DNA of 36,426 nucleotides from the UHGV virus genome UHGV-0192694. One strand, written 5' to 3'. This document shows, one piece after another, positions 423 through 36,426 of the stretch. Position 1 is the stretch's first letter, and each line of letters begins with the position of its first letter. Source of the DNA: a virus. A program made the translations under genes and the position numbers. A model generated the notes under the pieces. That model ran no database searches. It had not been told where the DNA came from and saw only the letters and a list, made by a program, of their open reading frames with translations.

Positions 423-1364
423 CTACAAAGAAATAATGTCCTTTACTAATTTTGCAAATTCAATATCCCCATTAAATGGATGAACATATTTGTAGAATTC
501 CCCACCATTTTCTAAAAAATAGTTTCTGTTTTCGTGTTCCAATTCTTCTATTGTTTCTAGACAGTCTACAACAAACCCTGGTGCAACAATTAATATATTT
601 TTAATACCTTTTGATGGTAATTTTTTCAAGGTATCATCAGTTGCTGGTTTTAACCATTCAGATGGCCCAAATTTCGATTGATAGGTTTGATAATAAGGAA
701 TATCTCCTAATTTATCCATTATTAATTTTGTTGTTTTAGTACATTCCTCCGGGTAGTTATCCCCATCTTTTACATAAGACATAGGAATTCCGTGGTATGA
801 AAAAACGATAGCATCTATTGGACTTTCATTCAAAGCTTCATTTATTTTTTTTGAAAAGTAACCTATATACTGTGGATTATTGTAAAATGATCGAATAAAT
901 TTAATATCCACTATCCTATCACTTTTTATAAAATAATTCATAACGGAATCAAACACTGATCCTACCGTTGTCCCAGAGTATTGCGGATACATTGGTATGA
1001 CATTGAGTTCTTCAATCTCTTTTGATAATAATGTATCTAGAGCAGTTTCTATACTCGGTTCACTGTATGACATTCCAATTGTAACTTCCACTTCTGGACA
1101 TATATTTTTCAAATTTTCCATTTGTTTCTCAGTATATTCCAAAAGAGGAAATCCATTTTCAGTACAAATTTTTTGATAGAGTTTTGCTGATTTTTTTGGA
1201 CGTATATTCAAAATAATACCGTTCAAAATCGGTTTCCAAATTATAGGATGTATTTTTATTACTCTTCTATCTGATAAAAAAGTTTTTAAATACTTCCTTA
1301 CTTCCGTCTTGGAAGAATCTTTTGGTGTTCCTAAATTCACTAAGAGAATTCCTGTTCTTTTCAA
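423..1364 (-). CDS. hemH: ferrochelatase
   Basis: 313 aa; Firmicutes-type ferrochelatase features (LVNLGTP N-terminus, conserved GxxSxxxxH region, C-terminal HxxxxxE); family recognised from translated ORF. Confidence 0.8.
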   Translation of the reverse strand: MKRTGILLVNLGTPKDSSKTEVRKYLKTFLSDRRVIKIHPIIWKPILNGIILNIRPKKSAKLYQKICTENGFPLLEYTEKQMENLKNICPEVEVTIGMSYSEPSIETALDTLLSKEIEELNVIPMYPQYSGTTVGSVFDSVMNYFIKSDRIVDIKFIRSFYNNPQYIGYFSKKINEALNESPIDAIVFSYHGIPMSYVKDGDNYPEECTKTTKLIMDKLGDIPYYQTYQSKFGPSEWLKPATDDTLKKLPSKGIKNILIVAPGFVVDCLETIEELEHENRNYFLENGGEFYKYVHPFNGDIEFAKLVKDIISL

Positions 1365-2423: not shown

Positions 2424-2624
2424 TTATGCTTTAAAAATATTAACAGCTTGCATACCGCGCTGTCCTTCTTCAATATCAAAAGTTACTGCTTGTCCTTCTT
2501 CTAATGACTTAAAACCATCCGCTTGAATTGCTGAAAAATGAGCAAATACATCATTGCCATCTTCACCTGTAATAAATCCAAAACCTTTGTCTGAGTTAAA
2601 CCACTTTACTGTACCGTTGTTCAT
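2424..2624 (-). CDS. csp: cold-shock protein (CspA family)
   Basis: [18 protein letters not shown]...VFAHFSAIQ canonical cold-shock domain with RNP1/RNP2 motifs; start moved to second ATG (2624) because AAGGAGG SD lies inside the first ATG codons. Confidence 0.9.
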
Positions 2625-2867
2625 ATATGTTTCCTCCTTGTGCATACCCTGTATGCGATTTGTTGCAAAAAATGTTTGATAAGCAAAAGGAGAATTATAG
2701 TCTTATGTATAGCGCTCTCGTTACATGTCAAAATTGATTACCTATTTATAATACCATACTACTTCATATAAAGCAAATGAGTGTATTAAAACATGATGGA
2801 TCAATACTATAAAAAGGTTATAATCCATCTACTCTAGACATGAAATATAAATATAAATATACGATAC

Positions 2868-2901
2868 AAAAAACCCCCTTGCACAATTATGATACAAGGG
2901 G
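2868..2901 (-). terminator. Rho-independent terminator (minus strand)
   Basis: CCCCTTG/CAAGGGG 7-bp GC-rich stem, A6 on plus side (U-run on minus). Confidence 0.5.
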
Positions 2902-3240
2902 CCTGTAGTCTTTTACTACAAGTAATTGCTTTATTATTCTAGCAAATTAGTTTTGTTAATTCAACCAATAAAATTATTCACAACTTATTAACATTATTAA
3001 CAAAATTGTGTTTGGCTTTAAATTAGAACTGGGATATTAAGGAATATCGCTAAAGTAGCTGTACTACAATTTTCCACTTATTTAAAAGGAAACTGTTCTC
3101 AAGTAATAGTAGCTTAGAAATAGGCTAATTCTATTTTTTATTAGGATAAATTCCGTACACATTATCCTTTTCATAAATTCAAGCTTAACCTTGTTATAAA
3201 AAAAGAAAATCGGTTATGATTAACAAGTAAAATCTAAAAA

Positions 3241-3300
3241 AACACCTACCGCACAGACAACTGCTTGGGGAAGTACGTGCATCTGTGGTAGGTGTTTTCT
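3241..3300. repeat. structured repeat element copy 2 (AACACCTAC stem, CTTGGGGAAGTAC loop core); bidirectional terminator-like
   Basis: AACACCTACC...GGTAGGTGTT outer stem with nested CACAGA/TCTGTG stem; A7 before and T4 after; about 180 bp downstream of endolysin stop. Confidence 0.6.
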
Positions 3301-3476
3301 TATGTAATACAATAGCTTTAAACTAAGCTACGTATGAGTAAAATTAAAATGCTCCTACCTAAGGACTTGGCATAAGATAGGAGCACCTCTTTTCTAAATC
3401 GAAAAGAGTCATAATATGAAAAGGTGATTCTATTGTAAATGAGGTACCTCTAAATTTCAACCGATTTTGCAAAAAA

Positions 3477-4736
3477 TCAATAGCTCAATGTTTGACCAGG
3501 ATAAATCAAGTTAGGATTTGCTAATCCGTTTAATGCAGCTAAGGTTTGATAAGTCGTACCAAGCTTAGCTGCAATGCTTGATAAATTATCACCGTATTGA
3601 ACTGTGTAAATGTTGCTTACTACTGATCCATTTACTTTCAAAATTTGGCCAGGGTAAATAAGATTTGGATTTGTCAATCCATTTAATGCAGCCAATGTTT
3701 GATAGTTTGTTCCGTATTGATAAGCAATGCTTGATAATGTTTCGCCGTATTGTACCACATGAGTCGCTTCTGGTAGTTTATCAGGAACAGTTGCCGCATC
3801 TGGCAATAATTCAATATCGCCTTTGCTGATCCATGACAAGATACCTTCAAGCAATACTCTGCTCTCAGTTACTTCTTGTACTATATAGCTGTTTCCTTTT
3901 ACCCAATCTGGAATAGCTTCGCCTGTTGCCCAAGCATCTACATTAAATTTCACTTTGACGGTATCGCCAACTTTAACATCAGAATTAGGTATTTTTTCAA
4001 TTTCTTCGCCTGCATCTGTTGCTGGCGTGTCCGTTTCTGGTTTATTGGTATCTGTATAACCACTATCCGTAATTCCTATTAAATCTACGTTACCATCTAA
4101 CCCACCTGCAATATAAGTGGATGTAAATTGCCAAATACCAATGCCCTCCATACTTGGGAAATAAGCATACAATGGTTCTGGCGTTACTTCATAGCTAGGA
4201 TAAGCAGCAATCCATAAAGAGTTAGGGAACTCTTTAATAATTCGCTGATAGTCCACATACTGCAACGTAAAAGGCTTGTATGAATAATACATTGGTGTAT
4301 ACCCTGCTTGTTTAATACGGCGCATACCGTACAGGATTGTTTCCGTATTTGCGTTTACGTCAGAACTAGCACCATGCTCAAAGTCTAAAGCAACGATGGA
4401 ATTTTTAGGCGTTTGAATACGTGGTAAGAAGTAATCCATTGTTGTTTTTGCAATATCCATGTTTCCCCAAGTGTCATACCAAATATAGGTATGCGCACGT
4501 TTACCTTGTGCAATAGCACTCGCTACTTGTGATTTATATGTGTATTGTTCATAAATACCGCTAGCATTGTAGCCACCAATCTGGGCAATAGCGAATTTAT
4601 CATGTGCATAGCCAAAACGGCCTTGTTCGCCTTGATAAATCGCCCAGTCAACGCCTTGATCACCTTTTGCAGCGAATACATTTAAAGGAGCAACTGCTAC
4701 CAACGCTACAATAATCAACGTTACAATTTTTTTCAT
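3477..4736 (-). CDS. endolysin: Sec signal peptide + GH25 muramidase + 2x LysM
   Basis: N-terminus [25 protein letters not shown] is a typical signal peptide followed directly by GH25 DxxxxQG motif (GVDWAIYQG); two C-terminal LysM repeats ([17 protein letters not shown]..., [16 protein letters not shown]...). Confidence 0.85.
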
Positions 4737-5677: not shown

Positions 5678-6130
5678 TTAAATTGCATACACCCGTGTCA
5701 ATACAAAAGTTTTTGAAGCAGTATTATTATTTTTATGGCCTAAAATTTGCGTATTGCTTATATAAATATATTTGTTGTATTTTGCTCCATTCAATGTTTC
5801 TAAATGATGAACAACCGCACGACCTCCAAATTCCACTATATGCGTTTTTGGAACAAATACATAGTTCAAATCCCAATTGTCTCCTAGGCTTGTACTTGTG
5901 TTATATGGTTGATATAAAAATAACCAGCCAGAAAGACATTGATCCAATGGTAAACTCGGATTAATTGATTGATTTTCCCCCATATACCATGCTCCTGACC
6001 AAACTTTTTTACCTACATTTAAAATATTTGTTTCAGATAACTTATTTAGTAACTTTTCAAGACTATCAAAATTTTCTTCAATAGCTTCTGCTCCGTTCTC
6101 CATCCCTCGATAAATTCTGGTTAATTCCAT
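5678..6130 (-). CDS. receptor-binding protein (BppL-like lower baseplate protein)
   Basis: N-terminus LTRIYRGMENGAEAIEENFDSLEKLL resembles the conserved N-terminal shoulder segment of lactococcal P335-group RBPs (recalled TP901-1/Tuc2009 BppL N-terminus KKVYRGMKNGAETINDDLEAIN); last tail gene before lysis module. Confidence 0.6.
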   Translation of the reverse strand: MELTRIYRGMENGAEAIEENFDSLEKLLNKLSETNILNVGKKVWSGAWYMGENQSINPSLPLDQCLSGWLFLYQPYNTSTSLGDNWDLNYVFVPKTHIVEFGGRAVVHHLETLNGAKYNKYIYISNTQILGHKNNNTASKTFVLTRVYAI

Positions 6131-6146
6131 ATTCTCAACATCCTTT

Positions 6147-6887
6147 CTATATAATTAAATCAAACACTATGGATCGACTATTTTTTTCATCTATAAGTAA
6201 ATATTTATATTCATTAATTTTTACTGGTAAAAATTCCGTTGTATAATCCAAAGGAATAGATACAATGCACTCTGAAGAATTAACATGTCTTACAGTGCTT
6301 TGAATTGATTGAGAAGCACTACCGCCAAATAACCCTGTTGGTTCTGTACCTAAAGGCAGTACACCTATACCATGTGTCCAAGTACGAACATTAACGACTG
6401 GTTGAGCTCCTAAATTGTGAACAATAGTTACATCAAAACCAACTGGAATTACAGAAGCAATAATATTTTCAAAATATTCTAGCCGTTCATCCAACGTTTT
6501 AAAATTCCCCAAACGTTCACTACTTCGAGCATCGATAACTTCGCTATCTGTTGTAGCATTTGCGATTACATCTTTAAAACGTTCCTCTAAATTGGTTTGA
6601 CGTTGTTCTACTTTAGATTGGCGTTTTTCTGTATTTTCAGAAATAGCCTTTATTTTATTAAATAAAACACTGGTATACTCCATCATACGAGCTAAAGATT
6701 CTCGAACATGTCGTCGATACATCTTTGTTCGAATCCACAAAGCGAACGTTTGAGAAATAGGATCAATCACACCGTTTTTTATTTCATCTTGCACCTCATC
6801 GACATCGGTCGGGTCTTGATAATCAACTGTTGTATTTGGTTCATTTGTTGGTCGAGTATCCTTAAATTCTTGTGCCAACCGTCTCAC
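6147..6887 (-). CDS. baseplate protein (BppU-like, upper baseplate)
   Basis: 246 aa, N-terminal coiled-coil region, positioned between Tal and RBP. Confidence 0.45.
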   Translation of the reverse strand: MRRLAQEFKDTRPTNEPNTTVDYQDPTDVDEVQDEIKNGVIDPISQTFALWIRTKMYRRHVRESLARMMEYTSVLFNKIKAISENTEKRQSKVEQRQTNLEERFKDVIANATTDSEVIDARSSERLGNFKTLDERLEYFENIIASVIPVGFDVTIVHNLGAQPVVNVRTWTHGIGVLPLGTEPTGLFGGSASQSIQSTVRHVNSSECIVSIPLDYTTEFLPVKINEYKYLLIDEKNSRSIVFDLII

Positions 6888-9060: not shown

Positions 9061-12000
9061 CTACGATACCTCCCATCTTGCTTTTGTTGTTCTGCTAAAT
9101 TAAGATTCATTGGGCTACCTAGCGCTCCCACTACTTGGCCAGTATCCATCACGACAGTTAAATGTCGTATTTCTTCTAAAATTTCTACCATTTTTCCCAT
9201 TGGCGTATTATCTATAGAGTGTTTTACCTCAATTGCATTTGAACGTTTCATCAAACGGCTACCCGTAATAGATTGATGAATACTTGAAATCATATCTTTT
9301 GCACTTTGTACGGCAACCGACGTATCTTCTCGAATACCTGCAGCTACACCTTGTGCAAGGAAAACACCAACATCATATTTCAATAGGCGTGATGGTGATT
9401 TAATTTTTGCTTTTTTCTGTGCTTCTGCATTAACGGCGGCTACTAAATTTTGCATAGCAGCCACTGCTTCTCCCTGACTTGCACGAATACCAGAAGCAAC
9501 ACCTCTAGCCATATTTGAACCTACAGGGCTCATATCTACAGAACCTGCACCCTGACTTACCGCATTTCCTAAAGACCTTCCAGCATTATTTGCAGGGGGT
9601 AACTGAGTTAAATATCCTTGAATTGTTGCCGCACCTAGCTGACTTCCAGAATTCTTCGCATTTCCTTTTTCAGAATTCGTTCCAGCATTTGTCTGTTGAG
9701 CATTGCTTTTACCAGCATTTTTATGTTCATTACTTTTACTTCTTGTTCCAGCAGCAGCTGCACTACTATTATCAGCGGCAGCTTTCTTAGAATTAGATTT
9801 TTGCGAAGATTGACCACTATTCATCGAAGACATCAATTCTTTACCAACATTATTAAGTTGTGTTTTACCAGAGTTTAATCCATCAATTAACTGGTTTTTT
9901 CCGTCTTGACCATTTCTAAATAAGTCAGGAGGCAACGCTTGTAAAGTATTCACAATGTCAGCTCTTGACATATTCGCCCACTTCGTTGGATCATTACTTT
10001 GTAATCCCTGAACTAGTCCGTTAGAGCCATCAATCCCTCGTTGACGTAGCATTCCTGCCAATAAAGCCATTTGTTGGTCAATGCTAGCACCATTATTTAC
10101 ATAAGATTGATAAATGCCTAAAAGCTGTTGGTCTGTAACGCCTTTAAGTTGTGCTAAATTATCAGCTGTCACTGCAATTTTATTTGTACCATTTTGTGAA
10201 ATAATCGCTAGAAGTTGAGCTCCTTGCTCTAATTCACTTTGTCGTATTTGAGCATTTTGCGTTTGTAATTGTGTAATTTGATTTTGGAAAGCTGCTTTTT
10301 CAGATTCCGTTTTTGCTTGGTTCTTTTGTGTTTCTAGTTGCTGAATTTGGGCGTTATTTTCTTGCACTTGTTGCGCTTGAATTTCCCCAAGCGTTCGCAA
10401 GCTTGTCAAAGTTTGTTCTTTTTCTTGCTCGCTTAATGCTTGTTTATTAGCCAACTTATTCATACCTACCTCAACAAATTGTTGGTTCTGTTGTAATAAT
10501 TGATCACGAATAATATTCGTTTGATTTTGCAAAGTAGCTCTTTGCTGTTCTGTCAATTCTTGACCCTCTACTGTTTTATTATTCTTCAATTGGTTAGAAT
10601 AATCAGTATATACCTTCAATAAATCACTATTATTCGTTTGAATAGCTTTCATATACTGGCTTGAAGCATTGGCAAAAATCTTTTGCTTCTCTGCTTCTGA
10701 TTTTCCTTCTGCCGCTTCAATTTGCTTGTTATAGGTTTCAACAGCCTTTTTCTGTTGTTCCTTTAAATTCGTAACTAAATCAAGTGTATTCTTGAAATAA
10801 GTTTCTACGCCAGCCGTACTACCATTTTGCTGTGAGAAAAGTTCAGTCATTGCCTGTTTAGCTTCATCAAGTTTTGAAGAATAATTTTCAACACTTGAAG
10901 AGGCTTCTTCCATATTTAACGAAATTGCTTTCGTAGTGTCTTTGGACTTTTCACCTAATTCTTCGGTGCTTTTAGCAGCTTTTTTTAAGGCAGAATCAGA
11001 AAACATTGTATCCCAATCTTTTTCTATATCAGATAAGCTTTTCTTCATATCTTTAAATGCTTTATCAGCACCTTTAGAATCGCCTTTTAATCGTTTCCAA
11101 AGTCCTTTTACACCGTTTGAAATTGCCATTATTGCATTTACTACCGTTTTTCCTACAGTAACGATAGCACGTAATCCATCTACAAAACCTGCTATTGCAA
11201 AAGTGACACCAACAATTGCGCCAGTACCTAACCATTTAAAGGTATTTCCTAATCCTTTTATTGTTTTAGTAACACTCGAGGAGCTAGGAAGTACACTTTT
11301 AAACGATTTTACTATTCCGCTAAAAGCAGTTTTCACGTAGCCTTGAATGTTCATAAAATTGGATTTCCAAGCTTGCACTACACCTACTATCGTAGCGGTT
11401 ATTGCTACTAAAATTGCTGTTATGGGATTGCTCAACATAGCTCCTGTTAAACTAGCTATAGATCGTATACCCGTTACCGCAAATGTTCTAAAACCTCCAC
11501 CTGCTTTTGAAGCAGCTACGCCAAGCCCTGATAAAACCGTTCCTGATTTGCCAGCTGCAGAGGATAGGTTTCTTAGCGACCCTACAGGATTAATAACAAC
11601 AGAGGCAAATTTCGCTAACTTACTGTTAGATAATTGTAAAGAAGCAGAAAAAGAACGAAAAAAGTTAGTAACTTTATTCCCTTCTCCTAGCATATTTAGC
11701 TGTCTTTGGCTTGCTCGTAAATTTGCTCTAAATGTATCTAACGTAGGAAAAAGACCTGAAATAGTCTCTCCTAACGTGGTAAATCTTGTTAGTACATTTA
11801 CGTTAACTCCCGCATTTTCAAGCCCAACCAGATTTGCTTTATATTTAGAAACAAACCCTTTTACAGCTTGTAATGCGCTATTAGAACCCCTAATAATAGG
11901 ATTATTGATAAATTTCTTCCACTTGCTGTCGATATTTCCCGCGGTTTCAAACATTGTTGAAATTGTTTTTCCAAAAATGCTTGTCATTTTTCCAAAGACT

Positions 12001-13535
12001 TTTAACACGGGACCAACTGAAGCTGCTAACGCAATCATTTTCATTATATATTCTTGAGTTTTAGGATTGGCCTCTGAAAAAGCTTTTGCCATCTTTCCTA
12101 AAGTTTCAACTAAAGGTTTAGAAGCCTGTAGTGCACTTCTTAATGCATCTACAAAAGGACCACCTAAATCTATTCCCATATTTACAAATTCATTTTTTAA
12201 CATTCCAAGTTTTGCTTCAGTTGTCTCGTAACGCTTACCAGCTTCATTTGCTAGAGCTGTATTTTCTTTAAAAGCTGAATTACCTCGTTTTACAGCACCT
12301 TCAAAGACATCACTTGCATTAGCCGCACGTAATAAACTATCACGTAATCTAACTTCTGTAATTCCCATATCATCTAGCACTTTAATAGCTGATATTCCGT
12401 GTTTTTCTGAGTCTTTTAAGCCCTGGATAAATTCAATTAATGCTTGAGATGGATTGCTTTTGAATAATTGTGCAAACTCTTCTCCAGTTCGACCTGTTAC
12501 ATTCGCGAAATCTTCCAGACTACCTGAAGCTTTACTGGCTTCTTTATACATTTTTTTTAATTCTGAGGTAGGCATTCCCATTTGCTTAGAAACTGCCGTC
12601 AGTTCTTTTCCACCCCAGTTTACAGCATGCACAAAAGATTCCCAAGACACGCCTTGCTCCGCTACTGCTTGTTTCAGCGGCGCAAAAGCTTCAACACCTG
12701 TTTCTGTTGCTAATTGCATTTGAACCATTAACCGAGAGAACGCTGAACCACCCGCTTCGGCCTCTATACCAACAGATGATAACGCCGCTGCAAAACCTAC
12801 AATATCTCCTTCAGTCATACCAATTTGTTTTCCTGCACCAGCTAAACGTAAGCCCATCTCTGTAATCTCTGATTCGGTAGTCGCTAAATTATTCCCTAAG
12901 TCAACAATCGCTGAACCAAGGTTGCTAAATTTATCTTGTGACATCCCTGTAATGTTAGCAAAACGAGCTAAGGAAGTAGCTGCTGAATCGGCTGACATGT
13001 TTGTTGATTCGCCCATATCGATCATAGTTTTGGTAAATCCTACAACTTTATCAGTTTGGATACCTAATTGCCCCGCCGCTTCCGCAACGTTTGCAATTTC
13101 TGTGTGACTTGCGGGCAATTCTTTTGCTAAATCTCTAAGGCCTTTTTCTAAATCATCATAAGAATAAATGACTTTACCGTTAGAATCGACCATCTCATCG
13201 TTGGTCTTTTTAACTCCAGTAAAGGCGCTTTCCCATTTTACCGCTGCGGTTGTTACTGCGCCAACGGCGCCCGCAATTGGAAGTGTGATACCTTTAGTCA
13301 TAGAATCGCCGACTTTTTCAATGCTTTGACCGATACTTGCGGTTTTATCACCAAAACTTTTCATCGCACCATTCACTGTATTCAAATTACTAGGAATATC
13401 AGAAGCGTTTGAGCTAAGTTTTTTTAGCGAAGATACAGCACCGTTCATCGCACTGGTAAAATTGTTATCACGTGCTGTAAGTATGGCTGTTACCGTTTTA
13501 CTTTGTGTCACGTTTTTTCCTCCTTTCCTCAACAA
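9057..13535 (-). CDS. tape measure protein
   Basis: 1492 aa, long helical/TM-rich central region, Q-rich coiled coils, position after G/GT chaperones. Confidence 0.9.
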   Translation of the reverse strand: MLRKGGKNVTQSKTVTAILTARDNNFTSAMNGAVSSLKKLSSNASDIPSNLNTVNGAMKSFGDKTASIGQSIEKVGDSMTKGITLPIAGAVGAVTTAAVKWESAFTGVKKTNDEMVDSNGKVIYSYDDLEKGLRDLAKELPASHTEIANVAEAAGQLGIQTDKVVGFTKTMIDMGESTNMSADSAATSLARFANITGMSQDKFSNLGSAIVDLGNNLATTESEITEMGLRLAGAGKQIGMTEGDIVGFAAALSSVGIEAEAGGSAFSRLMVQMQLATETGVEAFAPLKQAVAEQGVSWESFVHAVNWGGKELTAVSKQMGMPTSELKKMYKEASKASGSLEDFANVTGRTGEEFAQLFKSNPSQALIEFIQGLKDSEKHGISAIKVLDDMGITEVRLRDSLLRAANASDVFEGAVKRGNSAFKENTALANEAGKRYETTEAKLGMLKNEFVNMGIDLGGPFVDALRSALQASKPLVETLGKMAKAFSEANPKTQEYIMKMIALAASVGPVLKVFGKMTSIFGKTISTMFETAGNIDSKWKKFINNPIIRGSNSALQAVKGFVSKYKANLVGLENAGVNVNVLTRFTTLGETISGLFPTLDTFRANLRASQRQLNMLGEGNKVTNFFRSFSASLQLSNSKLAKFASVVINPVGSLRNLSSAAGKSGTVLSGLGVAASKAGGGFRTFAVTGIRSIASLTGAMLSNPITAILVAITATIVGVVQAWKSNFMNIQGYVKTAFSGIVKSFKSVLPSSSSVTKTIKGLGNTFKWLGTGAIVGVTFAIAGFVDGLRAIVTVGKTVVNAIMAISNGVKGLWKRLKGDSKGADKAFKDMKKSLSDIEKDWDTMFSDSALKKAAKSTEELGEKSKDTTKAISLNMEEASSSVENYSSKLDEAKQAMTELFSQQNGSTAGVETYFKNTLDLVTNLKEQQKKAVETYNKQIEAAEGKSEAEKQKIFANASSQYMKAIQTNNSDLLKVYTDYSNQLKNNKTVEGQELTEQQRATLQNQTNIIRDQLLQQNQQFVEVGMNKLANKQALSEQEKEQTLTSLRTLGEIQAQQVQENNAQIQQLETQKNQAKTESEKAAFQNQITQLQTQNAQIRQSELEQGAQLLAIISQNGTNKIAVTADNLAQLKGVTDQQLLGIYQSYVNNGASIDQQMALLAGMLRQRGIDGSNGLVQGLQSNDPTKWANMSRADIVNTLQALPPDLFRNGQDGKNQLIDGLNSGKTQLNNVGKELMSSMNSGQSSQKSNSKKAAADNSSAAAAGTRSKSNEHKNAGKSNAQQTNAGTNSEKGNAKNSGSQLGAATIQGYLTQLPPANNAGRSLGNAVSQGAGSVDMSPVGSNMARGVASGIRASQGEAVAAMQNLVAAVNAEAQKKAKIKSPSRLLKYDVGVFLAQGVAAGIREDTSVAVQSAKDMISSIHQSITGSRLMKRSNAIEVKHSIDNTPMGKMVEILEEIRHLTVVMDTGQVVGALGSPMNLNLAEQQKQDGRYRS

Positions 13536-30453: not shown

Positions 30454-31011
30454 GTGATGAATAATTTGAAAAAATATTTTGATGTTTTTGTAAAATGTGT
30501 AACTACTATCGGAGCTTTATTTGCTATTTGGAATGTGATGCAAAACAACAATCAAATAAAAAAAGTTAATTATGAAAATGAGCAAAATATAAAGTTAGAA
30601 CAATCAAAAAATATTTCTGTTTGGAACAATGAACAATCAAATAAAAATAGCCCCATATCGCTCGAAAAAATTCCAAATGTGATAGCTAATAATTCGAATC
30701 AAGCACCAGTATATAAAGTATTTGTTATTTCTATTCCTAATAAAATAGACAATGATTCATTATCTAAAAAAGTATCTTTCGCTTCAGAATTTAACAGCTA
30801 TAAATATTTAGAAACTCTGCCACCAGGAAAAGTCGAATTAAGTCTTCCTGTTTTACCAAATGCTATGGGGGGCATTCATGGTGTACCTATAATATTTTTT
30901 ACGGATTTTAGAAATGTTGAATGGTATAGGGATCAACAAGGGCGCCTCATGGAGTATCCCAAATACGAAACTTTTTTAAATAAAAATGGAATTAATCCAC
31001 CATATCGTTAA
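30454..31011 (+). CDS. N-terminally membrane-anchored moron protein (185 aa), opposite strand to early genes
   Basis: Single N-terminal TM (FVKCVTTIGALFAIWNVM), N/S/K-rich extracytoplasmic part; RBS AAAGGTG; convergent with flanking minus-strand genes. Confidence 0.55.
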   Translation: MMNNLKKYFDVFVKCVTTIGALFAIWNVMQNNNQIKKVNYENEQNIKLEQSKNISVWNNEQSNKNSPISLEKIPNVIANNSNQAPVYKVFVISIPNKIDNDSLSKKVSFASEFNSYKYLETLPPGKVELSLPVLPNAMGGIHGVPIIFFTDFRNVEWYRDQQGRLMEYPKYETFLNKNGINPPYR

Positions 31012-31932: not shown

Positions 31933-32121
31933 ATGTTTTTTGTAATAAAGAAAGCTTCTAATAAAAAATACTATTTTGTAATTAAAACCGAAGAAAATGA
32001 AGTAATCGCATCAAGCAAGACTTATTACTATAAATCTTCTGTTTTAGAAATTATTGAATCCATCAAAAGTGATATGGATCAAAAAGCTATTATTGTTGAC
32101 ACTACTTTTAACTGGGGATAA
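31933..32121 (+). CDS. DUF1508 (YegP-like) domain protein
   Basis: KKYYFVIKTEENEVIASSKTYYYKSSVLEIIESIK fits the YegP/DUF1508 repeat signature (F.LKA.NGEvIa.SE.Y). Confidence 0.65.
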   Translation: MFFVIKKASNKKYYFVIKTEENEVIASSKTYYYKSSVLEIIESIKSDMDQKAIIVDTTFNWG

Positions 32122-32146: not shown

Positions 32147-32920
32147 CTATCCTATTTCTTTAAACATATCTCCATTACCATTAGCCATATCAATTCTTGC
32201 TTGTAATTCTAAGTTAGGCTTCCATCTAGGAATTAGAGCTACAGCCTCTTTATATCGAACTTTTGGAATGTCTACATAAGATGCTACATCGAATAATGCT
32301 TTCAATTGTTTATAACAATTACTAAAGGCTGATTGCTTAATACTTGAATCCTGATAAGCCAATGTTTTTTTGCCACCTAATACTTTGATAACAGTTGATG
32401 AAACTAGCCCTTGTATCTTTCGTTGTTGGCTTCTATTAATTGTAGTTTCTGTTTCTAGCTTATCTAAACGTTGATTTACAAGAGTCAATCCACGTTCATG
32501 TTTTAACGCAGCTTCTAATAACAATTCTGTGTTATTAATCGGTAAGTTTGATTGAGTTTTAAGCAATTCCTCCATTTGGTTAAAAGCTTCAATGTATTTC
32601 AGTTTGAATGAATCTGCTTTTTTTCCAGTGAATCCAAATGCAATGAAAGAAAAGCCATCTCGATTCATGTAGTACAATCTTTGTTTTCTACCTCTTGAAT
32701 CTTTGTATTCTCCTTCAGCAAACATGTTTTGGTAATAAGCCGAATTTTCGGCCGATTGAATTTTAGCCTCTATTGCTTCAATAACATGCTTATGTTGTTT
32801 TTCAAATACTTCAGCAACTTGTAAACTAGTTGTTACTGCTTGTTGGTTTTTCATAATTACTAAGTTGTCCATTTTTTCCTCCTTAAATTGTTTCTGTATC
32901 GCTCTTTCCTTTAATCCCAA
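32147..32920 (-). CDS. Rha-family phage regulatory protein / antirepressor
   Basis: VTTSLQVAEVFEKQHKHVIEAIE is the Phage_pRha N-terminal signature; C-terminal coiled-coil domain. Confidence 0.7.
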   Translation of the reverse strand: MGLKERAIQKQFKEEKMDNLVIMKNQQAVTTSLQVAEVFEKQHKHVIEAIEAKIQSAENSAYYQNMFAEGEYKDSRGRKQRLYYMNRDGFSFIAFGFTGKKADSFKLKYIEAFNQMEELLKTQSNLPINNTELLLEAALKHERGLTLVNQRLDKLETETTINRSQQRKIQGLVSSTVIKVLGGKKTLAYQDSSIKQSAFSNCYKQLKALFDVASYVDIPKVRYKEAVALIPRWKPNLELQARIDMANGNGDMFKEIG

Positions 32921-33232: not shown

Positions 33233-33409
33233 TCACTTGATATTTAAGATTTTTTTGATTTTCTGAACTTGCTCTTCTGAACGTCTGCGGCCATGAAGTA
33301 TATCTGATAAGTACGGACTTGAAATCCCTAGTTGTTTTGCTAACCAAGATTGGTTTTTCCCTGCACGAATTAGAGCTGCTCTAACATCAATCGCTAAGTC
33401 TTGTGACAT
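33233..33409 (-). CDS. cro: Cro-like XRE-family HTH repressor (58 aa; below ORF-track cutoff)
   Basis: MSQDLAIDVRAALIRAGKNQSWLAKQLGISSPYLSDILHGRRR; divergent from cI across operator-containing intergenic region. Confidence 0.7.
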   Translation of the reverse strand: MSQDLAIDVRAALIRAGKNQSWLAKQLGISSPYLSDILHGRRRSEEQVQKIKKILNIK

Positions 33410-33444
33410 ATTTATTACTCACTCCCTTTTATTTTTAAATTGTA

Positions 33445-33460
33445 AGCTAAAAAATTAGCT
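33445..33460. promoter_or_regulatory. operator palindrome AGCTAA-aaaa-TTAGCT
   Basis: Perfect inverted repeat overlapping putative cro promoter (TTATTA...TACAAT on minus strand). Confidence 0.5.
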
Positions 33461-33476
33461 AATTTAATAAAATCCG

Positions 33477-33505
33477 TTGACACTTTCTAACACATATTGT
33501 AAAAT
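33477..33505 (+). promoter_or_regulatory. plus-strand promoter TTGACA-17-TAAAAT
   Basis: Consensus -35, 17-nt spacer, near-consensus -10; faces cI. Confidence 0.45.
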
Positions 33506-33609
33506 GAACCCATAGCTAAATAAGACTTTAAAAGCCTTCTAAATCAATACTTTTACCGTTCCCCAACGATTTTTAAGTTTTGTTTGTAGGTTTTATTTGA
33601 GAACTTATT

Positions 33610-33625
33610 AGCTAATAAATTAGCT
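33610..33625. promoter_or_regulatory. operator palindrome AGCTAAT-aa-ATTAGCT
   Basis: Second copy of the same half-site; a third half-site TAGCTAAAT at about 33512. Confidence 0.5.
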
Positions 33626-33720
33626 TACGTGATTATATTACTAACAAATATTGTAAATGTCAAATGTTTTTACTAACTTTTTTTGTAAATAACACGTAAC
33701 TAGAAGGAGAATGCATTCAT

Positions 33721-34053
33721 ATGAACCTCTTGGAACGTATAAAAAAACTAGCAAAAGATAGAGATGTGTCTATTTATCAGCTTGAAGAAGAAATAAATAT
33801 TGGACGAAATACTATTTATCAATGGAATAAGCGAACACCTTCTTCGGATAAACTTGAAGCTGTAGCCAATTATTTTAATGTTTCTGTTGATTATTTATTA
33901 GGTCGTACTGAAAATCCAAACCAAGCTGGTGCTAAACCATCTGATGATTTAGATGAAGTATTAGACAATGTGATGAGTTTCGATGGTGAGCCTTTGGATG
34001 ATCATGATCGGGAAGTTATTCGTGCTTATTTGAAAGGGAGATTCGGAAAATAA
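33721..34053 (+). CDS. cI: CI-like repressor (XRE HTH)
   Basis: N-terminal HTH (KDRDVSIYQLEEEINIGRNTIYQWNKR); acidic C-terminal half; RBS GAAGGAG. Confidence 0.8.
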   Translation: MNLLERIKKLAKDRDVSIYQLEEEINIGRNTIYQWNKRTPSSDKLEAVANYFNVSVDYLLGRTENPNQAGAKPSDDLDEVLDNVMSFDGEPLDDHDREVIRAYLKGRFGK

Positions 34054-34060
34054 TTTAAAG

Positions 34061-34414
34061 GTGTGCTATATGAAAAGTATCAAAGAGTTGGTGGAAGAAT
34101 ATGAAGTAGAGTTAGTTTTCGCTCCAATAAATAAGCGCGCATGTTACGAGCCAGTCAAAAGAATAATTTTCGTAAATCAAAATTTATCTATCGAAGAACA
34201 AGAAGAGTCTATATTCCATGAGTTCAAACATGTTGTCTCCCATTCGGATTATATTGAGTTATATAAAATTCCTTCTTTTAGAAATAAGATGGAAGCTGAG
34301 GCAGATTATCATATGTTTAAATGTCTTATTGAAAAACATGACGGGCAATTTAATTATTCTAATGTGATTACTCATTACAATTTAAAGATGGGACAGGAAA
34401 CTTATTTAAATTAA
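34061..34414 (+). CDS. ImmA/IrrE-family metalloprotease (HEXXH)
   Basis: HEFKH zinc-binding motif; immediately downstream of cI as in ImmR/ImmA pairs. Confidence 0.7.
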   Translation: MCYMKSIKELVEEYEVELVFAPINKRACYEPVKRIIFVNQNLSIEEQEESIFHEFKHVVSHSDYIELYKIPSFRNKMEAEADYHMFKCLIEKHDGQFNYSNVITHYNLKMGQETYLN

Positions 34415-34449: not shown

Positions 34450-35178
34450 TTGAAGATAAATCAAAAAATCTATAATTACTCTGTTGTTGTCTTAGCATTA
34501 ATTTCAATTGCTTTAGTTATTTTTGATTTTTCAAATGTTATTAATATTAGTGATCCACCATTTAACATTATTGATAATTTTATCTTAATCACATTTACAA
34601 TTGACTACATTGTTAGATTCATTATTTCAAAAAATAAAATCAAATTTTTTAAAGAAAATATTTTTGATCTGATTGCAATAATTCCTTTTGATGCTATTTT
34701 TTCTTTCTTTAGAATCGCTAGGTTATTTCGAATAGCTAAAATAGCTAGACTTGCAAAGCTAACAAGAGCGATAGGTGTGGTTGGCAAATTAACAAGAAAC
34801 ACTAAATCATTTTTAAATACGAATGGATTTTTAAACGTGATTTATTTAAGCTCAGTTCTTATTGTTATTTCAGCAATGATTTACTCATATGCAGAAAATG
34901 TCCCGTATATTGATGCATTTTGGTGGGCTTTAGTGACAACAACTACTGTTGGTTATGGCGATATTTCACCAGCTACGCCATTAGGTAGAGTTGCAGCAAT
35001 CATTTTAATGATTTTAGGAATTGGATTTATTGGTATGCTTACTTCAACTATTACAGAATATTTTAATAAAAGTAATAATGAAGATGAAGAATCAAATGAT
35101 AAAATTGAAATACTAATTAATAAAATTGATCAATTAGAAACTACGATTGAACAACTAAAAGAGGAAATAAAAAAATAA
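34450..35178 (+). CDS. 6-TM voltage-gated-type K+ channel
   Basis: S4 with Arg/Lys every third residue (RIARLFRIAKIARLAKLTR), pore helix + selectivity filter TTTTVGYGD, S6, C-terminal coiled coil; TTG start with RBS. Confidence 0.8.
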   Translation: MKINQKIYNYSVVVLALISIALVIFDFSNVINISDPPFNIIDNFILITFTIDYIVRFIISKNKIKFFKENIFDLIAIIPFDAIFSFFRIARLFRIAKIARLAKLTRAIGVVGKLTRNTKSFLNTNGFLNVIYLSSVLIVISAMIYSYAENVPYIDAFWWALVTTTTVGYGDISPATPLGRVAAIILMILGIGFIGMLTSTITEYFNKSNNEDEESNDKIEILINKIDQLETTIEQLKEEIKK

Positions 35179-35277
35179 CGCACCCTCTCCGACCAAGAAG
35201 TTAGTGCGTTAAAAATAGAAACAAAATAGGCTTATTTTGTTACGCCTATTTTACCACAAAGAAAAGGACGTGAAAAT

Positions 35278-36426
35278 ATGGCGAAACTAAATTGGTCCAA
35301 AAAATACAAATATGTTTTTTCTTACTCAAATAAAAAAGGAACTTTTTGGGGATATCGCTATCCTTATTACAACTCTCTAAAACACCGAAAAGAAGCTAGC
35401 AAACGTGGATTTGAAAGCGAAAGAGCAGCGAATAAAGCATTGCTAAAAATCCAATATGCTTTAGAAACACAAAACACTTCCTTCATCGAAAATAAACAAC
35501 TCACCATAGATGAATGGATCGATGTATGGATACCTTACGCCCAAGACAATTGGAGTGTTTCAACTAAACAAAACATTGAATCTGCTATCAAATTTCACAT
35601 ATCACCATTAATTGGAAATCAAAAACTATCTTCTTTAAATAAGATTACCTATAAACGAGAATTTATTGATAAATTAAGACAAAAAAACAAATATACAGAA
35701 TCTACCATCCAAACTTGGCATAAAATTGTAATGAGGATGATTAACGCTGCAGTACACAATCAAATCATCCCTAGCAACACGCTAACAGGCTTTAAATTTG
35801 ATTTAAGTAATAATGTTCGTTCGTTCTCTAAAAAGGAATTACAGCGATTTGTGGCGGTTTTAGAAAACGAAGATATTCAAACGCAAGTTATATTTTTAAC
35901 TCTGCTAAAATCTGGAATGAGGAAAGGCGAACTGATGGGGCTGCGTTGGAGTGATATTGATTTAACCGAAAAATATTTCGATATCAATTCTACACGTGGT
36001 GATTACGGTGAAAATAAACCTAAAACAAAAACCAGCATACGTAAAGTTTATTTTGACAACTCGTTACTCACTTTAATAAAAAAATACAAAAATCATGAGA
36101 AAGAACGGCTTTTCAGAGAAGGGATAATTTTAAGCGATAAGGACTATTTTATTTTAAGTTCTCGAAATTTACCTATCAAACAATCAAGAATTACGTATAT
36201 GTTTCGCCTGTTATGTGAAAAAGCAGAAGTTCAAAACATAACCGTACACGGCCTAAGACATACCCATGCAACGTTTTTAATTGAAGCAGGAGCAAACATT
36301 AAGTACGTTTCAACTCGGTTAGGACACAAGAATATTAATATAACTTTGGATGTTTATAGCGATGTGCTAAAAGAAGAAGAAAAAGAAACAGCTGATATGA
36401 TGGATAAACTTATTGAGAACTTGTGA
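35278..36426 (+). CDS. int: tyrosine integrase
   Basis: C-terminal catalytic region with conserved R...HxLRH...Y (HGLRHTHATFLIEAG...LGHKNINITLDVYSDV); RBS AAAGGACG; stops at the last base of window. Confidence 0.9.
   Translation: MAKLNWSKKYKYVFSYSNKKGTFWGYRYPYYNSLKHRKEASKRGFESERAANKALLKIQYALETQNTSFIENKQLTIDEWIDVWIPYAQDNWSVSTKQNIESAIKFHISPLIGNQKLSSLNKITYKREFIDKLRQKNKYTESTIQTWHKIVMRMINAAVHNQIIPSNTLTGFKFDLSNNVRSFSKKELQRFVAVLENEDIQTQVIFLTLLKSGMRKGELMGLRWSDIDLTEKYFDINSTRGDYGENKPKTKTSIRKVYFDNSLLTLIKKYKNHEKERLFREGIILSDKDYFILSSRNLPIKQSRITYMFRLLCEKAEVQNITVHGLRHTHATFLIEAGANIKYVSTRLGHKNINITLDVYSDVLKEEEKETADMMDKLIENL

Follow-up and report, generated by a model that had tools for sequence, protein, structure and literature searches.

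A predicted Kv-type potassium channel encoded in the lysogeny operon of an Enterococcus faecalis prophage

UHGV-0192694 is a viral genome of 36,426 nucleotides (nt), and we refer to this whole stretch of DNA as the window. Close to its end, at 34450..35178 on the plus strand, lies a gene that Pfam, AlphaFold and Foldseek all assign to the Kv-type voltage-gated K+ channels with six transmembrane segments (6-TM). The gene begins with a TTG codon, just 5' of which stands the purine-rich, Shine-Dalgarno-like stretch GAGAGTGAGAG, and it specifies a protein of 242 amino acids (aa). It follows the genes for a cI-like repressor and an ImmA-type protease and precedes the integrase gene. From the sequence evidence set out below, we are highly confident that it encodes an intact, K+-selective, sensor-bearing channel of the Kv family, carried as cargo in the lysogeny operon of an Enterococcus faecalis prophage.

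The Pfam profile Ion_trans (PF00520) matched the protein over profile positions 2-239 of 241 (E=1.6e-22; 80 bits against a cutoff of 25), and Ion_trans_2 matched its pore half (E=4e-19). A preliminary description, made by reading the sequence, had proposed a complete Kv-type channel with filter and sensor intact; this is borne out by the two profiles, together with a TVGYGD filter and seven S4 charges. The PHROG profile search gave matches to families 7872, 14690 and 15627 only, and PHROG 7872, which is labelled 'unknown function', covers the protein from end to end (E=1e-105). By sequence, the best solved relative is the pore module of KvLm (PDB 4H33; E=3e-25), followed by Kv1.3, Shaker and KvAP. 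A search of NCBIfam returned no equivalog-level match, and the cutoff for MVP, a hyperpolarisation-activated archaeal channel (NF040645), was not reached (47.9 bits against 300). Gating polarity is not readable from sequence (PMC2151562).

The S4 voltage-sensor helix comprises residues 85-106 (SFFRIARLFRIAKIARLAKLTR; 34702..34767, plus strand), as judged from the periodicity of its Arg and Lys residues and from alignment to Kv1.3. A basic residue recurs at every third position, giving seven consecutive charges (R88, R91, R94, K97, R100, K103 and R106). In the HMMER alignment, the S4 charges fall on R2, R3, R4, K5, R6 and K7 of human Kv1.3; R1 alone is replaced, by Ser85. Residues D42, F49, D52 and R56 of S2 and D73 of S3 were likewise aligned by HMMER to the E, F, E, R and D positions of Kv1.3. 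In the terms used for Shaker-type channels, D42 and D52 are the two acidic positions of S2, F49 is the charge-transfer-centre Phe, R56 the S2 Arg and D73 the S3 Asp. Across an alignment of 62 homologues (A2), F49, D52 and D73 are invariant, while R88, R91 and R94 are at least 90% conserved.

The K+ selectivity filter, T-V-G-Y-G-D, can be read directly from the sequence at residues 166-171 (34945..34962, plus strand) and is invariant in both of our homologue alignments (A1 and A2). At the C-terminus, residues ~219-242 (35104..35175, plus strand) form a coiled-coil-like helix with regular 3-4 heptad spacing (I219, L222, I226, L229, I233, L236 and I240), in which L229 is at least 90% conserved in the 62 homologues; this tail is probably a tetramerisation bundle. 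An AlphaFold model, with the 62 homologues as input, had a predicted local distance difference test (pLDDT) score of 80.4 and showed S1-S6 together with a pore helix and, at the C-terminus, a long helix (helices at 2-27, 38-59, 63-77, 80-93, 98-122, 124-149, 153-164 and 177-241). The last of these runs on from S6, and, together with the heptad spacing, it substantiates the coiled coil noticed in the preliminary description. When the model was compared with the PDB by Foldseek, Kv1.3, Shaker, Kv1.2 and Kv2.1 were matched over 213-259 aligned columns (E ~1e-7). We infer that the protein would form a tetrameric, K+-selective, voltage-gated pore in the host membrane. The ratio of nonsynonymous to synonymous substitution rates (dN/dS) between phage alleles is 0.08-0.22, and the channel gene is under purifying selection. 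Its GC content is 26.1%, against 34.5% for the window, a typical mark of acquired cargo.

The cI-like helix-turn-helix (HTH) repressor upstream (110 aa; 33721..34053, plus strand) matches Pfam HTH_26, HTH_3, HTH_19 and, weakly, Phage_CI_repr, as well as PHROG 8 and 4 (transcriptional regulator/repressor). It is followed by the gene for an ImmA/IrrE-type M78 metalloprotease (114 aa; 34070..34414, plus strand; Peptidase_M78, E=6e-7; PHROG 87 metallo-protease, E=1e-20), which has an alternative GTG start at 34061. The channel gene lies 35 nt from immA and 99 nt from int, which encodes a tyrosine integrase of 382 aa (35278..36426, plus strand; Phage_integrase, E=5e-29; Phage_int_SAM_3; Arm-DNA-bind_4) and with whose stop codon the window ends. 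A candidate lysogenic promoter, recognised by its match to 11/12 positions of the sigma-70 consensus (TTGACA-17-TAAAAT; 33477..33505, plus strand), faces into this cI-immA-Kch-int array, where Kch is the channel gene. The 35-nt gap between immA and the channel gene has no terminator-like fold (z=0.36 against shuffled sequences), and our search for a promoter of the channel's own found no strong one, just a weak promoter-like site inside immA. Since the gap is short and unfolded and a near-consensus promoter-like site lies upstream of cI, it is plausible that the channel gene is co-transcribed with cI-immA in the lysogen. Between the channel stop codon and int, RNA folding predicts two hairpins (35176..35241, plus strand; -26.3 kcal/mol, z=-3.2 against shuffles). 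They have no U-run and the terminator scan made no call there; possibly they act as a partial terminator or attenuator.

The gene thus lies between repressor/ImmA and integrase, is co-oriented with them, is present in some relatives and absent from others, and has an atypical composition. By these marks it is a moron, a gene carried in addition and dispensable for the growth of the phage. In further assemblies of this prophage, the host comG genes are reached only past the integrase, so the channel gene does not belong to the flanking chromosome; the preliminary description was right to place it inside the prophage, co-oriented with cI/immA and int. On contigs L194-L199 (~5918-6448) the prophage adjoins the host comG operon (T2SSE, T2SSF, ComGC). 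The open reading frame (ORF) that abuts the integrase on these contigs varies (138, 147 or 176 aa) and in one case overlaps the integrase end; because of this variation, the attachment (att) site may fall within the 3' terminal part of one of the comG-operon genes.

On the other side of the genetic switch, a divergent cro-like HTH gene (33233..33409, minus strand; Pfam HTH_3, HTH_31) starts the early lytic operon and is followed by a Rha/ORF6C antirepressor gene (32147..32920, minus strand), identified by Pfam profile search. A minus-strand promoter-like site (33663-33635) points towards the cro-like gene, face to face with that at 33477-33505. The switch region (33420-33720) contains operator-like repeats, with GTAAGCTAAAAAATTAGCTAAT at 33442-33463 and an inverted copy at 33607-33628. 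A second operator-like family, TTaCTAACAnATATTGTAAA, occurs at 33484-33504, 33638-33658 and 33670-33690 and overlaps both promoter-like sites.

The rest of the window has a minus-strand siphophage layout, which includes a 1,492-aa ORF of tape-measure size and a lysin, and in parts the window is 96-98% identical to Enterococcus phage SEsuP-1. Two plus-strand ORFs run against the early lytic genes: the product of one (30454-31011; 185 aa) is hydrophobic at its N-terminus and matches no family, while that of the other (31933-32121) is a 62-aa DUF1508 protein. Judged from their orientation, these may be further lysogen-expressed cargo. Beyond the lysin, at the opposite end of the prophage, lie genes for a full ferrochelatase (423-1364, minus strand; Pfam, E=1e-107) and a cold-shock protein (2424-2645, minus strand; CSD, E=4e-29), both of which are also annotated in the near-identical phage SEsuP-1. 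E. faecalis is not known to make haem, and a ferrochelatase is odd cargo for one of its phages.

The channel is very common, and already annotated, two points absent from the preliminary description. Public assemblies contain the identical protein in 2,458 indexed blocks, and it is present on at least 1,000 contigs, under the NCBI name 'potassium channel family protein [Enterococcus]'. A scan of IMG/VR gave 257 relatives, of which we analysed the loci of the best 80; because IMG/VR holds viral contigs only, the counts show the position of the gene within phages, not the phage-borne fraction of Kv genes. A recombinase was counted if it was co-oriented and within 6 kb downstream, and one was found in 75/80 loci (68 tyrosine and 7 serine recombinases), at a median distance of 156 nt and in 45 loci at 400 nt or less. 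A co-oriented HTH gene lies upstream in 73/80 (median gap 434 nt), and 71/80 have both neighbours. All 79 of the full-length copies (79/79) contain TVGYGD, and a five-charge S4 pattern is present in 74/79.

The surroundings of this conserved position differ from lineage to lineage. All E. faecalis contigs examined have the order cI-ImmA-Kch-Int. Carnobacterium has HTH-M78-171 aa-66 aa-Kch-Int, and an Enterococcus sp. element has HTH-Rgg-Kch-Int. In L. plantarum prophages an identical channel protein is accompanied either by a repressor of the S24 type or by HTH plus M78, and by replication modules that differ, with more cargo between channel and integrase. A large serine recombinase follows the channel directly in an Oscillospiraceae prophage, and on one Oscillospiraceae contig the coordinates of the channel stop and the recombinase start coincide (L186:1882-2649 / 2649-4268). 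Two E. faecalis prophages share a channel allele (98% identity), whose neighbour is a tyrosine integrase in the one and a serine recombinase in the other (L116:10001-10723 / 10818-12185). Phages PLE2 and JNU_P5, deposited as complete genomes, have the same gene order. These data strongly support the view that, among temperate phages of Enterococcus, Carnobacterium, Lactobacillaceae and gut Clostridia, one gene family holds this slot in a constant orientation, with either type of recombinase. Some channel-bearing elements (L181-L183, L190) carry a REP_ORF2-G2P rolling-circle-type replication protein, and no structural genes were seen in the 6 kb viewed on their lytic side; these elements might be small satellites or islands, not full prophages.

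What else occupies the interval between repressor and recombinase? The slot is empty in the sibling prophage phiFL1A, and in SEsuP-1 it holds a LysM protein and a small PHROG-9078 protein. Two sibling E. faecalis prophages carry a lipobox protein between ImmA and the channel, one a 304-aa DUF4352 lipoprotein (L105:8766-9680) and the other a protein of 132 aa with no family match (L116:9585-9983); from their sequences, both are candidates for proteins resembling those of superinfection exclusion (Sie). Channel-bearing loci contain 172 further co-oriented ORFs between repressor and recombinase, which fall into 92 clusters. Leaving aside 12 ImmA-type proteases, the clusters that could be annotated belong mostly to defence families: Abi_2/AbiD (4 clusters), Abi_alpha, PemK toxins, SIR2/ThsA and a ThsB TIR-like protein (Thoeris), as well as SLATT 2-TM effectors, DUF3644/EC042_2821 and a non-specific endonuclease. 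The slot cargo further includes several PADLOC candidate systems (PDC-S02, S19, S25, S47 and S57). The slot is a defence hotspot.

The preliminary description had likened the slot to that of the superinfection-exclusion (sie) genes of P335-type phages. Such phages do carry sie between integrase and repressor (PMC7693887), and the positional part of the analogy stands; the channel itself is unlike any Sie, abortive infection (Abi) or PADLOC model. Similarly, the suggestion that related prophages be surveyed for sie genes at this position did yield Sie-like lipoproteins and many Abi and other defence genes, but the lipoproteins often stand beside the channel, which does not replace them. A universal partner gene was sought across the channel loci and none was found: in E. 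faecalis the channel has either no partner or a lipoprotein. In L. plantarum-type loci (L016:8738-8980 and 13 other loci) a very hydrophobic protein of 80 aa, without a family match, starts 3 nt after the channel stop and could be a lineage-specific partner. In Carnobacterium-type loci (L012:7799-7999; L181:5788-5988) a highly basic 66-aa protein is encoded immediately 5' of the channel. Its matches in the larger PHROG families 10934, 3374, 29766 and 4721 are to their first 66 positions, and, as the matches are confined to these, the protein looks like a detachable N-terminal module.

Homologues also occur in bacterial chromosomes of related species, which the preliminary description had not mentioned. 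Those of Latilactobacillus sakei, Xylocopilactobacillus apicola and Enterococcus mediterraneensis are plainly chromosomal (47-54% identity), with metabolic genes as neighbours and no recombinase or repressor nearby, and they keep the filter, the sensor-charge motifs and the heptad-like C-terminal tail. The homologues of Streptococcus oralis and S. mitis (43-44% identity) and KvLm are chromosomal too. In a neighbour-joining tree, phage-borne and chromosomal copies were interleaved within a Firmicutes clade, and all more distant relatives were chromosomal; the tree is a rough, distance-based one with no support values, in which the interleaving is visible and the direction of transfer is not. 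This interleaving points to exchange between host chromosomes and temperate phages. In a profile scan of genome contigs, the matches listed were mostly distant chromosomal Kv genes of other phyla.

KvLm (Lmo2059) of Listeria monocytogenes (PDB 4H33/4H37) is the closest characterised relative, with 40% identity over 206 residues (E=8e-40). Like the prophage channel, it is a short 6-TM protein (~245 aa) with a TTVGYGD filter and a C-terminal helical tail, and it has been shown to be K+-selective and activated by depolarisation, with a half-activation voltage (V1/2) of +154 mV (PMC2151562). It differs in being chromosomal, and its sensor is degenerate, with 3/8 of the conserved charges according to its authors, whereas the prophage channel keeps R2-K7 and all of the S2/S3 counter-charges. 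At the level of sequence, the prophage channel has the more canonical sensor. Matches to 'Listeria phage LM 4-11-1 / 4-14-1' were rejected as phage-borne channels: the record OR848302 (LM 4-14-1; L191, 1-8545) is Listeria chromosomal DNA with KvLm at 837-1589, its other ORFs, judged by eye, being heme A synthase-like, copper-resistance, MscL, bile-salt hydrolase and GroEL genes. This record and its siblings OR847073, OR847074 and OR848322 should not be counted as phage-borne channels.

The prophage channel shares with KvAP, Shaker, Kv1.x and Kv2.1 the fold, the filter, the S4 periodicity, the acidic residues of S2 and S3 and the charge-transfer Phe. It differs from them in having Ser at R1, in lacking T1 or any other cytoplasmic domain apart from its short heptad tail, and in being phage-borne. 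Among phage proteins, gp27 of Lactobacillus phage PLE2, an 'ion transporter' (YP_009282368), belongs to the same family (50% identity over 75% of the query) and occupies the same slot, in the order HTH, metalloprotease, channel, other cargo, integrase. The Kcv-type or 2-TM K+ channels of chloroviruses and of Vibrio, Aeromonas, Acinetobacter and Pseudomonas phages are likewise virus-encoded, with a canonical filter and a homologous pore; indeed, PHROG 14690, which comprises 2-TM phage K+ channels, matches residues 123-229 (E=1e-26). However, these proteins are pore-only and mostly ~80-160 aa in length, with one Vibrio phage protein of 228 aa (PMC6163359), whereas the prophage channel, at 242 aa and with a full S1-S4 sensor, does not belong to the Kcv type. 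The 2-TM matches come from large phage genomes of 97-235 kb, the prophage channel instead from a lysogeny operon.

Other comparisons concern function and position. The rexAB genes of phage lambda adjoin the repressor. Sbash gp30/31, a RexAB-like pair, is expressed in the lysogen, and its membrane 'ion channel' part has been proposed to stop superinfection through the membrane potential (PMC6426596). Both are functional and positional analogues only, with no relationship to the channel in sequence or fold: RexB and gp31 are four-TM proteins that lack a K+ filter and depend on a partner as their cytoplasmic sensor, whereas the prophage channel unites a voltage sensor and a K+-selective pore in one protein. 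Hailong, an anti-phage system found on mobile elements, has an IRK K+-channel-domain effector and provides a precedent for K+-channel-type defence (PMC13586616). It differs in consisting of two genes (channel effector and nucleotidyltransferase), in being nucleotide-gated and without a voltage sensor, and in its location in P4 satellite hotspots of Gram-negative bacteria; the PADLOC search revealed no similarity between it and our channel, though PADLOC does not detect Hailong (PMC13586616). Sie2009 and Ltp, of lactococcal and streptococcal temperate phages, are membrane-located, prophage-expressed proteins encoded between repressor and integrase (PMC7693887, PMC3952083). Such proteins are small, either anchored in the membrane or lipoproteins, and prevent the injection of DNA; they have no homology to the channel.

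We favour, if only tentatively, a reading in which the channel would act as a lysogen-expressed, single-protein, voltage-triggered K+ valve that shields the lysogen from superinfecting phages. A superinfecting phage would disturb the membrane potential at DNA entry or early in infection; the S4 sensor would answer the disturbance and the pore would open; K+ would then flow down its gradient; and the loss of K+, with the potential clamped at the K+ equilibrium potential (E_K), would stall DNA entry or macromolecular synthesis. The logic would be like that of lambda RexAB and Sbash gp30/31, with a voltage sensor in place of the cytoplasmic sensor protein. We rank defence first because of the association with a hotspot and because lysogen-expressed channel effectors have precedents in Sbash gp30/31 and Hailong. 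A more specific form of this idea, about which we are doubtful, takes the voltage-sensor domain to be an infection sensor: the channel would be shut at rest and opened by a phage or a pore-forming bacteriocin, and the release of K+ would stall the invader. Such a channel would possibly represent a one-protein, perhaps reversible, Rex-like immunity.

Several points weigh against protection from superinfection. Location is the sole basis of the defence reading, and the chromosomal homologues of L. sakei, X. apicola and E. mediterraneensis stand amid metabolic genes and not in defence islands; KvLm, too, is chromosomal. A pore selective for K+ pulls the potential to E_K; under ordinary gradients this repolarises or hyperpolarises the cell, and K+ enters if the potential is more negative than E_K. 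The 'controlled depolarisation' put forward in the preliminary description therefore fits poorly, and would be workable only at high external K+. Nor can such a pore, with its filter kept in every copy, collapse the proton-motive force as RexB-type and SLATT pores supposedly do. The channel has no universal partner gene and here follows ImmA directly. It gave no convincing match in PADLOC-DB v2 (a marginal PDC-S05 line only, E=0.007, with no stretch passing alone), is similar to no Sie or Abi model and falls in no Sie PHROG. KvLm, with its V1/2 of +154 mV, would rarely be open at physiological voltage (PMC2151562). Finally, the ferrochelatase and cold-shock genes show that the same prophage carries host-physiology cargo, so not all of its cargo is defensive.

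In a different reading, the benefit would be to host physiology. Lysogenic conversion would give the host a voltage-gated K+ pathway otherwise absent from E. faecalis, used either for electrophoretic K+ uptake or for repolarisation after membrane stress. The gain could be better tolerance of pH, osmotic stress or bile, or stability of the membrane potential, in the gut or in self-acidifying fermentations, and the phage would profit from a fitter host. We regard this as a credible, though unproven, second choice, nearly as likely as defence because chromosomal homologues exist in related species. Those homologues keep their motifs in housekeeping neighbourhoods and are interleaved with the phage copies, which suggests an unchanged biochemical activity; the K+ filter is strictly kept under purifying selection; phages of acid-producing Lactobacillales are where the family is concentrated; the channel lacks a partner gene; and the ferrochelatase and cold-shock protein of the same prophage fit a role of this kind. 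K+ channels serve as uptake systems in Helicobacter pylori (HpKchA) and Corynebacterium glutamicum (CglK). No Kv channel appears in published inventories of the K+ systems of E. faecalis, which name only Kdp, KtrAB, KtrAD, Kup and KimA (PMC9945522, PMC12296724), and for this reason the prophage probably adds a type of conductance that the species otherwise lacks. The same inventories cut the other way, in that five redundant uptake systems are already in place. The annotatable cargo of the slot is moreover mostly of the defence type, and the poor opening of KvLm at physiological voltage (PMC2151562) speaks against this reading too.

If neither kind of benefit applied, the channel could be a neutral or nearly neutral passenger, a host Kv gene that recombined into a permissive slot and hitch-hikes there. 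Its low GC would fit a foreign origin, chromosomal relatives exist, and the slot, which accepts cargo of many different kinds, is vacant in phiFL1A. We nevertheless consider this improbable: dN/dS between phage alleles is low, the filter is kept in all full-length IMG/VR copies and the sensor charges in most, the gene persists across phages of several bacterial families with differing repressors, replication modules and recombinase types, and the exact protein recurs throughout the public assemblies. A role in the phage life cycle, in which the channel would set the membrane potential for induction or lysis timing, block premature triggering of the holin or assist DNA entry or exit, seems if anything slightly less probable still. 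Holin triggering is sensitive to membrane potential, and the hairpins 3' of the channel could permit regulated read-through to int. Chlorovirus Kcv channels, too, act during infection (Greiner et al. 2018, PMC6163359). Yet the gene was never found in lysis or structural modules; it is always co-oriented with repressor and recombinase, opposite to the lytic operons; and the full-length 6-TM relatives examined were all in a lysogeny-type context, other phage matches being short ones to small 2-TM-type channels of Aeromonas, Acinetobacter and Pseudomonas phages. That the gene is chromosomal DNA just outside the prophage is an idea to which we give almost no credence. We found no support for it, beyond the circumstance that the window ends at the integrase stop with the att site out of view. 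The integrase lies beyond the channel and comG begins only after the integrase, the cassette is found at several chromosomal sites next to different recombinases, and homologues are present in the complete genomes of PLE2 and JNU_P5; the integrase/comG order and these two genomes effectively refute it.

Prokaryotic Kv channels and virus-encoded K+ channels are already known, and the present gene is itself common and annotated. Our search of the literature for a prophage K+ channel tied to defence, to the exclusion of superinfecting phages or to lysogeny modules turned up nothing specific; there was only the mention of PLE2, whose homologue is given one sentence, as a phage K+ channel that has 'four predicted TMs' and an identical counterpart in the host (Greiner et al. 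2018, PMC6163359). That review is silent on the voltage sensor of the PLE2 channel, its position in the lysogeny module and its wide distribution, and we found no paper on the function, voltage sensor or position of the channel. Its conserved lysogeny-module position across many phage lineages, in a defence-rich hotspot, appears to be undescribed in the literature that we searched.

Prokaryotic Kv channels have served as structural models for twenty years, while their physiological role has stayed largely obscure. Here, a canonical Kv channel is a mobile gene, present or absent on very common prophages of E. faecalis, Lactobacillaceae and gut Clostridia. Its slot is the one that prophages use for lysogen-expressed genes, and lysogens with and without it form a natural gain- and loss-of-function system for the role of a bacterial Kv channel. 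If protection of the lysogen from superinfecting phages proves true, membrane voltage would be a new sensing principle in anti-phage immunity, with a bearing on enterococcal phage therapy and on the robustness of starter cultures. Were the voltage-sensor domain indeed to sense infection, this would be the first antiviral role of a voltage-gated channel and the first clear physiological job of a bacterial Kv channel. If the channel instead tunes K+ and membrane potential for the host, it would be a lysogenic-conversion trait of wide distribution among gut and food bacteria. In both cases PHROG 7872 could lose the label 'unknown function'.

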